From: Gammaproteobacteria bacterium
Lineage (GTDB): Bacteria; Pseudomonadota; Gammaproteobacteria; JAJDYQ01
Assembly: GCA_963662865.1 (NCBI GenBank)
Contig: OY759969.1
Location: 1,707,638 to 1,771,637, forward strand
Direction of reading: 5' to 3'
DNA: 64,000 bases
Shown here: piece by piece, positions 49,601-51,488 of the stretch
Numbering within the stretch: position 1 is the first letter of the stretch
How the letters are laid out: each line of letters starts with the position of its first letter
Translations under genes and position numbers: made by a program
The notes under the pieces: generated by a model
What the model was told of the DNA's origin: nothing
Databases searched by the model: none
Seen by the model: the letters and a program-made list of their open reading frames with translations, nothing else

Positions 49601-51488
49601 TCTCACCGACTTCGCTAGAGGCACCGCTACCGACGCGGGTCAGGGAAACGAGCATCACGTCGTCATTTGTGATGGTGTGGGTGACGCGGTTGGCGGTGGA
49701 GGAAATCCCCACGCCGTTGGGGGTGTTTGTCGCCGGATTGGCGCTTATTTGTCTGGCAAGCGTCAGCACCACCGTCTCGTCAGACTCATTTATCATGTCG
49801 CCGTTAACCCGAATTCTGTAAGCAGCGCTCGTCTGATTGGCCGGAACCATGACGATGGTACAACCCCGTGTCCTTGTGCCTCCGACAAGGACGCCGTCTA
49901 CGAATCCGGCTCCAACACTTGCGACTACGTGTCCAACTCTTTGGGACAAACGCCTACCGACGACCGATAGCAAGTTACCGTTTGGCTGCCTAAGGGAAAA
50001 ATCTATCTCTGTGCTTGCTGTAATTATATCCCCGGCAGCCAATGAATTAATGAAGGTGGCGGTGCTGCCGGGGTCAATGCAGAGCAACAAGTGGGTGGCC
50101 GACGTACGGGCGGGGTTCACGTTAATCCGGAACTCTCTGTCCTGCGTACTGGAATCGCCTTCGTCGTTGGCGGCGTTACTGCTGGCCAGGCTAATCGATG
50201 CGAGCGCGTCGTCATTTACGATGGTGTGGGTGACGCTGCCGGCGGTGGTGGAAATAAACACGTTGTCGGGAGTGGTATCCCTTTTGCCAAGTTCCAGCAC
50301 GATCGTCTCGGTAAACTCTATTGTTGTGTCGCCATGAACTCGAATTACTCTGGAAAGGCTTGTGCCGGAGCTGCCTCCCAAATTCAGAATAGTACATGAT
50401 GTGAAGGTTAAGCGGCTCCCATCTGTCAGCCGCAAATCCCAGTCATCATCGCGGGTCGCCGTGCCGCTTGAGTTGACGCACAGGTTGAACACAAAAAAGG
50501 TCGAGCGAGTCTCCGACAGGCTGACTGTCACGGTATAGTCGGTAAAGTCGGAATCGCCTTCGACTGCGGTGGCTGTGTCCAGGGTGAGTGAGACTGTAGT
50601 TGATTCGTCCACTATGAAGACTGGGGAGAGGGCGTAGAGGCTGGCGGGGATTATTCGGGATTGAGTTGCGTGACTTAAGGGGCTTGCTGAGCCGGAAGTA
50701 GCTACACGTCCGACCCGAACTTGTCTAATGCCGTCGATAGAGCTGCCCTCGCCGAGAGGCGAAGAGTCCGTGGTGCCATCATTGCTGGTGCCGGTGAGAA
50801 CTAATCTGCCTTGATTGATAGTTCCTAATTGATTTCTAGATTGTAAGCTATCCCAGCTTCCGTCGTAGAGGTCCCGATAGTTGTCGGCGACCTTGGCACC
50901 ACCCAGCCAGTAGGTGGGTATGCCGATGCCGGGACCGGTGGTCATGGTATTGGTGCGGGCATTGACTGCGGCGGTCGAGCCAAGCGCCCGGAACAGTGAG
51001 CCGTAGGGCTCGATGGCGCTGTGGCCAAAGTCGGAGGCTCGTGTCTGCACGAAGCCGTTATAGTTCTCGATATCCGTTGAGACCCCGGTGGTAAGATCAC
51101 TGGTTGTGAACAGCAGCCGAAATCGACCGCCGGCGTTGACGGCAGACGGTTTCAGCGCCCAGTCCCTGGGGACGGTGTAGGTGCCGTCGTCATTGGCCAC
51201 CGGCGCGGTGGGTGTGGTCTGGGCGGCGGCTTCGGTTGCCAGTCCTGCCAGCAGCGGCAGGCCGAGCAACACGGCAATCAGCCCGCGGCGCAGGCCGGAA
51301 AGGCTAAAGCGGTTTAGGGCAGGCGCGAACCGATGGGATGCCGAGCGCCGCCCTGTGTCGGTGGCGAGGCTCAACATAAATACCCCATTTGGGGGGGGGG
51401 GGGGGGGGGGGGGGGGGGGGGGGGGGGGAGGCATTAAATTGTGTAGGTCGCCTGTAGCGCGTTTCAGGTGCATTTTAACCATGGTCAT
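40695..51488 (-). CDS. autotransporter-type giant surface protein, paralog 2 (leader with 14 Pro, long signal peptide, unique head domain, Calx-beta super-repeats, cadherin-like modules, autotransporter beta-domain)
   Basis: 3597-aa uninterrupted ORF. The N-terminus is M(T)MVKMHLKRATGDLHNLM-P14-...RRGLIAVLLGLPLLAGLATEAAA|Q. Residues about 91-292 are non-repetitive. These are followed by seven Calx-beta-like modules (I.INGD...E.DETV..L, TITDDDP) alternating with a second module type. The C-terminal third is colinear with paralog 1, including a near-identical beta-domain (about 40695-42140) ending QWKLRW. The probable initiation is the second ATG (51482), 6 nt after AGGA. Confidence 0.8.
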   Translation of the reverse strand: MTMVKMHLKRATGDLHNLMPPPPPPPPPPPPPPNGVFMLSLATDTGRRSASHRFAPALNRFSLSGLRRGLIAVLLGLPLLAGLATEAAAQTTPTAPVANDDGTYTVPRDWALKPSAVNAGGRFRLLFTTSDLTTGVSTDIENYNGFVQTRASDFGHSAIEPYGSLFRALGSTAAVNARTNTMTTGPGIGIPTYWLGGAKVADNYRDLYDGSWDSLQSRNQLGTINQGRLVLTGTSNDGTTDSSPLGEGSSIDGIRQVRVGRVATSGSASPLSHATQSRIIPASLYALSPVFIVDESTTVSLTLDTATAVEGDSDFTDYTVTVSLSETRSTFFVFNLCVNSSGTATRDDDWDLRLTDGSRLTFTSCTILNLGGSSGTSLSRVIRVHGDTTIEFTETIVLELGKRDTTPDNVFISTTAGSVTHTIVNDDALASISLASSNAANDEGDSSTQDREFRINVNPARTSATHLLLCIDPGSTATFINSLAAGDIITASTEIDFSLRQPNGNLLSVVGRRLSQRVGHVVASVGAGFVDGVLVGGTRTRGCTIVMVPANQTSAAYRIRVNGDMINESDETVVLTLARQISANPATNTPNGVGISSTANRVTHTITNDDVMLVSLTRVGSGASSEVGEIVFQVILNRALVGGEIVDVPLSIGGTGVTPADWRDLSINIVSAQTGVTLTGEATSTPQLRFTGRNIGDFVNLTRFATLRLLPSPDSIAEGGGTGSETYTIALGPDGDVANGFDRSTLGTNVPLGANPHGSDNSFDVMVADADATNILSLSIDSAMGAESNSDDFTSVATITYSMTPARTSLTPFRVCVSGTADRASGDYRLLGFEDAVFTEFDEAGCIVLVFLPNATSFTGRLQINGDRVDEPDETVIVAMARAGSSSFGPTPSSIIADASTGRITYTITDDDPTIVSLTRAGTGAIGESGTVDFTIALNRALADGEIIDVPLSIGGTGVTTGDWSLAADGTGVTLSGEGTATPLLSFSGAGAETATLMLTATLDDTDEGGTETYTIALGPNDDSANGFDLASRATNVGGGADPHASDTTFDVMVVDVATPHIVSISLDRTMAAEGDSGITDGATVTVTFDPPYTGGFSFDICFGGTATRGDSADWRYTRTNNSPQTVSNITECESASDVVTNVASFQRKIRINGDTVDELDETVTLTLQRDSRTPLNFFISPTAGSATFTITDDDPTIVSLTRTGTGAIEEGGTVGFTIALNRALIAGEIIDVPLSIGGTGVTTGDWSLAADGTGVTLSGENTATPLLNFSGVGAETATLVLTTALDNTAEGGGTETYTIALGPNDDSANGFDLAGRGTNVGGGADPHASANTFDVMVGDVTTHTVSISLDRTMAAEGDSGITDGATVTITIDPPYPNAGLGFEICLSGTATRGDSADWRLTGALNIAADAATLARCLSGASPVITAPNVASFQSTIRISGDTVDEPDETVTLTLQRTSSTPADVVISPTANRVTYTITDDEPTIVSLTRTGGTGAIGEGGTVGFTIALNRALAAGEIIDVPLSIGGTGVTTDDWSLAAAGTGVTLSAEGTATPLLNFAGTGAETATLVLTPAGDNTDEGTETYTIALGPNDDSANGFDLASRATNVGGGADPHASDTTFDVMVTDTVVHTVSISLDRTMAAEGDSGITDGATVTITIDPPRSNAGFGFEICLSGTATPGDSADWRFTLADNSAISISTVPEALARCSSGSVGIVVLSPDVDSFQRKIRINGDTVDELDETVTLTLQRTPQTPADVVISPTANRVTYTITDDDPTIVSLTRTGTGAIEEGGTVGFTIELDRALTAGEIIDVPLSIGGTGVTTDDWSLAAAGTGVTLSAEATATPLLSFAGAGAETATLVLTTTLDDTAEGGGTETYTIALGPNDDSANGFDLASRATNVGGGADPHASDTTFDVMVTDTVVHTVSISLDRTMAAEGDSGITDGATVTITIDPPHPVGFSFGICLSGTATRGDSADWRFTHPNNTAPSIASDSSCSSGVVGVTVTTSSVASTQNKIRINGDTVDELNETVTLTLQRRSTTAPEVVISPTANRVTYTIIDDDTAGVIITETDDATTLTEDGTDDYGVMLATQPTANVTITATSGTTATATVNPTALTFTATNWDTVQTITVAGLDNNADAANQQVTITHAINSTGDAIYNALAPVLVTATVTDDDATTVTLAGAAGNVMEGAAKAITVTLSRALAEGEALPVPLTFMGEATPGTDYSVTGTAATGVAYTGLDSATGMVTFTGPSATSATLTLSATPDSDVEASGETVIIGLGTLDGDSGTGLDGGASGTDSLDDFSIEDPLLISITGGTAVTEGSSVTFTVTANRVPGSALMIDLTVADAAAGDYLDAGDEGDNMVTLSGATTATVEIPTQTDSTDETNGTITVTIADGTGYTVGMPSSAMVGVTDDDATTVTLTGTAGNISEGVTRNLTVTLDRALVAGESLAVPLTLGGNATRGTDYTLTGIPADNIAYDIPNSATAGMVTFTGPAAATATLALAVQVDGTSDTGETITIALGTLDSNSGSGLGGGAAGTGSLAFTIMEQPTIVLPPTLTVTEGASVGYPVSLATTPTANVTVTVTGHTGTDLTLNTDSLEFTAANWNMIQTFTVTAGQDADAVDDTATLTHTATGGNYNTLTAQITVNTSDDEEAGVTISETAITIAEGDEGTYTVVLDSQPASEVEITVTSGLTSAATVNPMILTFTMTNWDTAQTVTVTGVDDNRVNPVREATLSHRISSGGGDYPVADLNQDVTVTVTDNDEAGLSFSGETITVAEGATTNYTVALTTIPTGDVTVTVSGHSGTDLTPDETSLTFTMTDWDTAQTVTVTAAQDGDAANDTVTLTHTASGTTGYGAVMDDVTVIITDDDTAAITISETAGSTTVLENGSEAGGTDTYTVVLATQPASGVEITVTSGLTSAATVSPPILTFTMTNWDMEQTVTVTGVDDNINNPGDARTATLSHRISSGDSGDYPTGGPPTPAAVTVTVTDDDAAPGVTLSTARITVAEANGMDTYTVVLDTPPSGEVEITASSNLESAATVNPLILTFTTVNWDTEQMVTVTGINDDDTGDREATIGHAITTGDGGNYPVADLNQDVTVTVTDDDATDTQEMQAAQAAWLPRFGLTAVEHMLGGLDYRLSVADQPGLSGNVSGLSAGRALHGGGNATGTSYAADGFGQGGGGDGLGAGSVDRLLNLSRTLSLRDMLRGSRFVHRGGENGVSVWGQASYSRYEDGQDGVTVDGDVTTGMLGVDRDNGRTLLGLALSYSDGDGDWSGTSEQGELSSQLTSLLPYIRHNVTQRLQVWAAASYGRGELEQTLEQTSATMSTEHDIEQRSASAGVRGTLLERPLEEGGLTLTLISDAALARIESDDADGVLGLTSNTKRFRMGLEWSWQLPQADGGRLIPELELGLRYDGGDTSDGLGVELGGGISWQLPSRGLTIDLRGRRLLDHEAAERREWGVSGSLRYDRQPGSAHGPSLSLRQEYGTAPASGGLDRLLSDSLSDALEEDSSQPGPASGRWSLEGEWGLALSDGATGIPYAGLSSSDSGHDLTLGWRLLSAPGNLDTELDIKALRRRNDEGRANHGIGAQWKLRW
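45326..49670. repeat. tandem super-repeats (five periods of about 850-904 bp) inside the paralog 2 gene
   Basis: The landmark GTGATGGTGTAGGTGACGCGGTTGGCGG... recurs near 45326, 46186, 47056, 47916, 48766 and 49670. Shadow ORFs at 45723 and 46599 are almost identical, 876 bp apart. Confidence 0.85.
51391..51428. repeat. homopolymeric tract: G38 on the plus strand, C38 on the coding strand
   Basis: Uninterrupted G run, hand counted (30+8). Together with the preceding CCT it encodes 14 Pro, in frame with the 3597-aa ORF. Confidence 0.9.

Follow-up and report, generated by a model that had tools for sequence, protein, structure and literature searches.

Why the gene for a giant adhesin would carry an uninterrupted run of 38 identical nucleotides between its start codon and its export signal is the question raised by the locus described here. 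The locus lies in a 64,000-nt stretch of contig OY759969.1 of a gammaproteobacterium (assembly GCA_963662865.1, positions 1,707,638 to 1,771,637), hereafter the window, which contains two giant paralogous adhesin genes on its minus strand, termed par1 (gene at 8463-13069) and par2 (open reading frame (ORF) at 40695-51488). A homopolymer scan of the window identified just two runs of at least 10 nt, G38 at 51391-51428 and G50 at 12969-13018, which read as poly-C on the minus strand, the coding strand of the two large ORFs; a preliminary description of the locus had counted the shorter run by hand, and its figure of 38 nt is borne out by the scan. The reading favoured here, which we hold to be fairly probable, is that the par2 tract acts as a contingency switch, being a hypermutable mononucleotide repeat in the translated leader of a giant type Va autotransporter, placed between a conserved start and the export signal.

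Pure poly-C tracts in two paralogous leaders

The par2 tract is pure, with 38.0 copies at 100% match in Tandem Repeats Finder (TRF), and encodes 14 Pro residues together with the CCT that precedes it and the A that follows it. The par1 tract extends over 50 nt at a position homologous to that of the par2 tract. Both C38 and C50 are uninterrupted and exceed the ~7-8 nt criterion of hypermutability for G/C repeats, and a 38-mer occurred in 0 of 100 dinucleotide-preserving shuffles. Because CCC accounts for just 22.6% of Pro codons (12 CCC in succession, P ~2e-8), the poly-C is a feature of the nucleotide rather than of the protein level, and selection of poly-Pro as a protein element was ruled out by codon usage; among the other window proteins checked, consecutive Pro residues reach a maximum of 4. 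At the ~20% divergence of the paralogues the chance of 38 sites staying intact is 0.8^38, or ~2e-4 by our own arithmetic, and the presence of 38-50 unbroken sites therefore points to ongoing slippage or selection. Tract purity is a stronger signal of selection or slippage than conservation of the leader. The third-longest homopolymer of the window, G9 at 491-499, is C9 on the coding strand and encodes PPP within a housekeeping gene, that of cytochrome c1 (74-826, minus strand; PF02167).

In par2 the Shine-Dalgarno (SD) sequence GAGGA (51489-51493, minus strand) lies 6 nt ahead of ATG 51482, forming a predicted anti-SD duplex of -6.0 kcal/mol, and a second ATG is found at 51488, two codons upstream. 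This AGGA-N6-ATG arrangement and the extra ATG, as previously described, are read directly in the sequence. ATG 51482 (51482-51480) is shared with par1 and opens a leader of 17 codons, MVKMHLKRATGDLHNLM (51432-51482, minus strand), which is followed by CCT + C38 + A, by AAT GGG GTA TTT, encoding the post-tract residues NGVF, and by ATG (51377) TTG. The frame remains open from 51488 to 40695, so that the tract is in frame with the whole ORF of 3597 amino acids (aa, counted from ATG 51488), as had been claimed. Beyond the tract lies a long export presequence, MLSLATDTGRR...LRRGLIAVLLGLPLLAGLATEAAA (51222-51377, minus strand), in which an RR n-region, a hydrophobic core and an AAA-Q site were recognised by inspection. 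A third paralogue, P0001, located on the same contig outside the window, has a nearly identical presequence (~4 differences in 53 residues relative to par2); its ORF is just 406 aa long, ends in PPPTASPTPS in what looks like a frameshift, and was called as a gene from the ATG equivalent to 51377.

The par1 leader displays the same organisation, with the SD AGGAG (13082-13078), ATG 13069 and 17 leader codons, MVTMPVKRATSAIHNLI (13019-13082, minus strand), ahead of its tract, and with the main reading frame extending from the tract to the stop codon (8463-12968, minus strand). The two leaders are homologous, with 10 of 17 residues and 40 of 51 nt identical by our own count. The 13 nt abutting the tract, TACACAATTTAAT, are identical in par1 and par2, and further shared 5' blocks comprise the SD, the ATGGT start and AAACGCGC.ACA. 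The previously proposed conservation of the leader and of the pre-tract codons thus holds, yet it does not rise above the level of the gene bodies, as discussed below.

Reading frames as a function of tract length

Both genes were rebuilt in silico with up to 6 nt removed from or added to the observed tract. Translation of par2 from the leader ATG gives the full-length product at 32, 35, 38, 41 and 44 C (3n+2), and that of par1 at 45, 48, 51 and 54 C (3n). All other lengths terminate 7-30 codons past the tract: par2 stops after PQMGYLC or PKWG...KPL, giving products of 35-60 aa, while par1 at 50 C encodes the leader, poly-Pro and IEIFGLSLAVD before the TAG at 12932-12934 (minus strand), a 45-aa product. 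Thus, one length in three gives full-length protein (ON) and the repeat is placed as expected for a frame switch, with the qualification that par2 also has an alternative start. The ON lengths of par1 fall in another class than those of par2 because, immediately downstream of the conserved LSLA(T/V)D codons, a 1-nt indel separates the two genes. As sequenced, par2 (38 C) is in frame and par1 (50 C) is out of frame. The preliminary description took one ON and one OFF gene as a sign of independent switching; the frames do differ as stated, but this state is expected 44% of the time by chance (2 x 1/3 x 2/3, our own arithmetic) and so carries little weight.

Under the contingency-switch reading, slipped-strand mispairing during replication would alter the C count, so that the leader ATG would join the ORF of 3.6 thousand aa at one length in three and run into an early stop in the remaining two frames. 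In the ON state the pre-protein would consist of leader, ~14 Pro and presequence ahead of the adhesin, all of which would be lost on export; since the tract precedes the signal peptide, the mature adhesin would be untouched by tract length. Since par1 is equipped likewise, with a tract and a frame rule of its own, it could switch independently of par2. At 38-50 nt switching would be very fast, and slippage of RNA polymerase, expected because the whole RNA-DNA hybrid would lie within the homopolymer, and of tRNA-Pro, expected because each codon is CCC followed by C, would add leakiness, such that the device probably works more like a noisy dimmer than like a clean binary switch. Slippage of tRNA-Pro by +1/+2 has been documented at CCC-C (PMC4519876).

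Homopolymers at homologous loci

Distantly related adhesin loci in other metagenome assemblies present shorter runs at comparable positions. In locus L005 (8566-8800) an ATG is followed by 19 codons, by C17 in frame as A-PPPPP-A, and then by an extended n-region with the signal peptide, the whole protein exceeding 2000 aa. Locus L026 (1501-1780) has C12 in frame, 34 codons past the ATG and ahead of the signal peptide, and locus L020 (843-1100) has G13 in frame, 16 codons past a GTG start and likewise ahead of the signal peptide. L010 (1-130) is a short-read contig that ends in at least 14 C, 54 nt before the signal-peptide ATG, while in L003 (5880-6010) C12 adjoins a TTGACA-17-TAATAG site upstream of the gene. 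Four of these five runs (12-17 nt) fall between start codon and signal peptide, in leaders whose sequences are unrelated to those of the window. The homologue loci amount to 133.6 kb, in which five runs of at least 12 nt were counted where 0.39 would be expected (Poisson P ~6e-5), a count biased by L026, which was chosen for PPPP in its protein and without which four runs are observed against ~0.38 expected. A homopolymer between start codon and export signal is thus recurrent in this adhesin family, with the window tracts as its extreme.

The leader sequence itself was not recovered elsewhere. When 185,579 species-representative genomes were scanned for the end of the leader joined to a run of C, ACACAATTTAATNCCNCCCCCCCC, two matches emerged, in a Phocaeicola metagenome-assembled genome (MAG) and a Lachnospiraceae MAG, which were rejected as AT-rich chance matches with 8-11 C, and a protein search with leader, poly-Pro and presequence returned 6 candidates, none of which scored. 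In the DNA alignment of the post-tract region with L003 and L004 just the signal-peptide core aligns, and a short AGATATTCG match was set aside as uninformative; the GGGG of P0063 was likewise discarded, having no homopolymer at the DNA level. In the nearest relative by RsmI (74% identical), azlCD follows rsmI at the place occupied by par2, and no autotransporter is found there.

The start of translation

Whether the tract can act on the reading frame depends on where translation begins. The leader ATGs pair with the anti-SD at -6.0 (par2) and -6.6 (par1) kcal/mol, whereas 19 housekeeping starts average -3.2; an energy of -6 kcal/mol is attained by just ~10% of random 20-mers. A possible alternative start in par2 is GGGG-TATTT-ATG (51375-51386, minus strand), with the in-frame ATG 51377 five codons past the tract and an anti-SD energy of the GGGG of -6.0 kcal/mol, equal to that of the leader SD. 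In par1 both this GGGG and this ATG are absent, no ATG occurs between the tract and the signal-peptide hydrophobic core, and the sole downstream candidate, GTG 12866, lies within that core and has no SD (-1.7). As it has no usable downstream start, par1, if expressed, must start at the leader ATG and cross the tract, and this lack is the best argument for the reading first proposed. The preliminary claim that translation begins upstream and reads through the tract is accordingly upheld by the leader SDs and by par1, and is weakened by ATG 51377 of par2; its alternative, a start at ATG 51377, gains from the GGGG in par2 and fails in par1. Translation most likely proceeds from the leader ATG through the tract, which would be read as poly-Pro.

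The chief competing explanation is an upstream ORF, in which par2 starts at ATG 51377 and the leader with its poly-C tunes initiation, tract length setting the level rather than the presence of the protein. Two routes could achieve this, melting of a CCCC-AAAU-GGGG hairpin or termination-reinitiation at the overlapping ATGTTGA. Besides the strength of the GGGG, it is consistent with the calling of P0001 from the same ATG with a near-identical presequence, with the stop of one par2 OFF frame at a TGA that overlaps ATG-TTG-A (PQMGYLC*), with an in-frame post-tract ATG in L005 and L020 as well, and with the pairing of the last C residues with GGGG in the minimum free energy (MFE) fold. The latter pairing, proposed in the preliminary description, fares poorly, as the centroid structure no longer contains it and par1 does not have the motif; the leader folds are moreover non-significant (z -1.9 and +1.1) and have no Rfam match. 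Given also that L026 has no post-tract ATG and that the one in L005 has no SD (-1.7), an upstream ORF is considered unlikely.

Upstream region, RNA structure and Rho

A promoter-like site, TTGCAA-17 nt-TAAAGT (51682-51710, minus strand), is located ~200 nt upstream of the leader ATG, and its blocks GGGCTTGCAAT and GACTAAAGTA are identical in both paralogues, the par1 equivalent lying at 13228-13256 (minus strand). The site fits 8 of 12 consensus positions and scores under the scanner threshold; the scanner's own promoter hit at 51499-51472 was rejected, as it runs into the SD and start codon and has no conserved equivalent in par1. Since the SD and ATG precede the tract and the promoter-like block lies ~200 nt upstream, the tract is situated in a transcribed and probably translated leader and not in a promoter spacer, and promoter-spacer phase variation is thereby ruled out. 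Further conserved blocks in the ~200-nt 5' untranslated region are ATTGCAG, CCGGGCCTGAA and CGGCCCGCAA. Just upstream of the par2 SD, at 51510-51530, a perfect 8-bp GC-rich hairpin, AAGCGGCC-CGCAA-GGCCGCTT (minus strand), was observed, the par1 counterpart of which is partly conserved in sequence with a weaker stem. On the plus strand this hairpin is followed by a T-rich run and has a terminator-like score, making it a candidate for halting antisense transcription.

A search of both leaders against Rfam gave no family, just a sub-threshold chance match on the other strand, and single-sequence folding of both revealed no significant structure; a structured-RNA leader (riboswitch or sRNA) is ruled out on these two grounds. 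The poly-C is predicted to be unpaired in the leader folds. Over 78-nt windows the C/G ratio stands at 7 for par2 and rises as high as 27 for par1, with flanks at ~1-1.5, and 40-53 YC dinucleotides are present, so that by composition alone the tract windows have the C-rich, G-poor, unstructured character of rut sites. These properties invite a composite leader device, in which a tract of 38-50 nt would be more than a binary frame switch: poly-C would serve as a near-ideal Rho loading site, the 14-17 Pro would tie ribosome passage to elongation factor P (EF-P) or proline supply, and slippage of RNA polymerase and tRNA-Pro would spread the frames, thereby coupling the stochastic expression of giant host-binding adhesins to the translational state of the cell at the level of DNA, RNA and ribosome; such a device has the same slim chance as the upstream ORF.

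Rated slightly lower, and thus improbable, is a Rho/EF-P checkpoint, in which the poly-C is above all a very strong rut site and also encodes a poly-Pro stall, length being selected for Rho binding. Ribosomes crossing the tract with the help of EF-P would shield it and hold transcription and translation together. Uncoupling, which could arise from an OFF frame, from low EF-P or proline or from slow translation, would allow early termination of the 11-kb transcript by Rho. Rho is classically activated by poly(C), and known rut sites are C-rich, G-poor and unstructured, as are the tract windows. Loss of EF-P in Escherichia coli causes a ~30-fold, Rho-dependent drop in expression of polyproline mRNAs with rut sites (PMC5021804). 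In addition, ~8-12 nt suffices for frame switching, which calls for further selection on length. This explanation is nevertheless built purely on composition, the 12-17 nt of the homologues are too short for a full rut site, and a checkpoint is compatible with the contingency switch, to which it may add without replacing it.

Points that weigh against a contingency switch

Several observations count against the contingency-switch reading. Par2 and P0001 both keep an in-frame post-tract ATG with an SD-like GGGG, and tract-independent expression of par2 from ATG 51377 is possible. The leaders are 73% identical between the paralogues, compared with 77-83% for the gene bodies, so that leader conservation is real but no higher than background and by itself does not prove selection. 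The choice of L026, noted above, inflates the homologue count. Tract lengths are known from one sequence, and no close relative with the locus was found. The source looks like a long-read metagenome assembly, the contig names of related records being typical of long-read metagenome assemblers, and long-read consensus is at its least reliable in homopolymer length; tract sizes are probably uncertain by 1-2 nt and, as the exact lengths are doubtful, the ON and OFF labels are not to be trusted. Ribosomes would be expected to stall on 14-17 Pro in a row and to need EF-P there, and slippage in transcription or translation, poly-Pro stalling and Rho loading could blur a binary switch. Finally, frame switching alone does not explain a length of 38-50 nt. 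Models and data on G/C tracts span 5-13 nt and describe a deletion bias for longer tracts and short equilibrium lengths (PMC4085013).

That the tracts have no function, being runaway microsatellites in decaying adhesin genes or owing their length and frame to assembly artefacts, is the least probable account: it can draw on par1 being out of frame with a 1-nt indel relative to par2 just past the tract, on the 406 aa and out-of-frame-looking end of P0001, on the fragmentation of homologous genes in related long-read contigs and on the general frailty of long-read consensus at homopolymers, but 3597 (par2) and >1500 (par1) open codons would not persist in pseudogenes, both tracts have conserved flanks and occupy matching positions in paralogues that have diverged, independent assemblies, some of them from short reads, show this arrangement too, and an artefact would not single out the interval from start codon to signal peptide.

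Encoded proteins and gene neighbourhood

The par2 ORF (40695-51488, minus strand) comprises leader, poly-Pro, presequence, Calx-beta-like modules and a C-terminal autotransporter beta-domain (PF03797; 40695-41816, minus strand; E 2.5e-13, 50.8 bits against a cut-off of 26). The same domain ends par1 (E 1.2e-13), both matches being above the gathering cut-off, and because both proteins terminate in PF03797 they are assigned to the type Va autotransporters. No Pfam match to the extended signal peptide region (ESPR) of autotransporters was detected in the full-length par2 ORF or in its N-terminal 292 aa, and the long presequence of par2 is of a different kind from ESPR. The par2 passenger gives weak Calx-beta signals in Pfam; at 41500-47500 (minus strand) it contains at least 4 tandem modules of ~860 nt (~287 aa), which are 69-77% identical to their par1 counterparts. 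Par1 looks like a shortened version without most of the modules and without the N-terminal passenger domain described next.

This N-terminal domain (50598-51200, minus strand) displays an endostatin-like (C-type-lectin-like) fold in an AlphaFold 2 (AF2) model with pLDDT >90 across the core. The best Foldseek matches in the PDB are endostatins of collagen XVIII/XV (PDB codes 1koe, 1dy1 and 1dy2; E 1.6e-4 to 4e-4), at 13-16% identity, a probability of 1.0 and a target TM score of 0.6. The domain family has no Pfam model; it gave 134 protein-database matches, nearly all from ENA metagenome assemblies, with loci largely from the metagenome records MKWU01 and LXNI01. Papers citing these accessions are sponge metagenome studies (PMC5099237, PMC5649159).

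The genes flanking in the window are rsmI, lpoA, yraN, diaA and a BON-domain gene, a layout also present in the relative L006 and one that indicates a gammaproteobacterium. The window RsmI has a 100% match to a database entry on a 2,573,357-bp contig, which also carries P0001. An HMW1C-like N-glycosyltransferase is encoded at 24493-26421 (minus strand; PF18071 E 5e-24, PF18254 E 2e-22). HMW1C-type enzymes glycosylate large adhesins in Haemophilus and relatives, and the one encoded here could modify both giant autotransporters. At 62096-63997 (minus strand) the window encodes a eukaryote-like protein of 633 aa with TPR and ankyrin repeats (Ank E 1e-22). Ankyrin and TPR repeat proteins are often reported in host-associated bacteria.

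Significance

Almost all known homopolymer contingency loci come from vertebrate pathogens and commensals, with tracts of ~6-15 nt in the publications consulted. If the contingency-switch reading is correct, the mechanism also operates in uncultured bacteria with relatives in sponge metagenomes, on giant adhesins that carry an endostatin fold of eukaryote-like type; the host is probably an uncultured, sponge-associated symbiont, and stochastic variation of the surface in contact with the host would be suggested for such symbionts. The reading would also pose the puzzle of how G/C tracts of 38-50 nt, for which models predict collapse, are maintained, replicated, transcribed and translated as poly-Pro. 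A practical warning follows, as gene callers and short-read assemblers break at such tracts: the L010 contig ends within one, and P0001 was called from the downstream ATG.

Comparison with known contingency loci and polyproline leaders

The closest parallel is provided by NalP and MspA of Neisseria meningitidis, in which poly-C tracts of 6-15 nt give expression at 7/10/13 (nalP) and 6/9/12 (mspA) C, as confirmed by immunoblot (PMC3723659). As in the genes described here, a classical autotransporter carries poly-C in its 5' coding region and one length in three is ON. The present tracts differ in extending over 38 and 50 nt, with a size known from sequence alone, in being located upstream of the export signal in a dedicated conserved leader, where they would add 14-17 Pro, and in belonging to an uncultured gammaproteobacterium that is no pathogen. 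In Bartonella badE, mononucleotide repeats early in the adhesin ORF are contingency loci in host adaptation, for which switching was shown experimentally; BadE is of type Vc and its candidate tracts are ~7-12 nt (PMC11466379), whereas the adhesins here are of type Va with 38-50 nt and frames derived in silico. A 5' poly(A) in inlA of Listeria monocytogenes, which belongs with a general bias of homopolymers towards the 5' end, inactivates the gene reversibly and leaves just a very short truncated peptide, and a survey of 99 genomes found that tracts >7-8 nt are generally not over-represented (PMC2831843). Like the tracts of the window, that of inlA is a homopolymer near the 5' end; unlike them, it is a short A/T run.

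The Opa proteins of Neisseria carry CTCTT repeats in the region coding for the signal peptide, such that the mature protein is unchanged and the paralogues switch independently; these repeats are pentanucleotides and the proteins are not autotransporters, unlike the homopolymer genes described here. The Salmonella mgtP and mgtL leaders couple Pro codons to Rho-dependent termination. Likewise, in E. coli reporters, Pro codons in EF-P/Rho polyproline leaders link ribosome speed to Rho termination (PMC5021804); these have 3-6 Pro codons in mixed sequence that is not hypermutable, in contrast with the 14-17 Pro encoded here by pure C. A non-exhaustive literature search found no report of bacterial coding-leader homopolymers of at least 30 nt, and the present tracts are three to four times longer than the published examples consulted. 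In kind, the proposed mechanism and the gene class are both known; what sets the locus apart is its host, the length of the tract and a dedicated leader that precedes the export signal.

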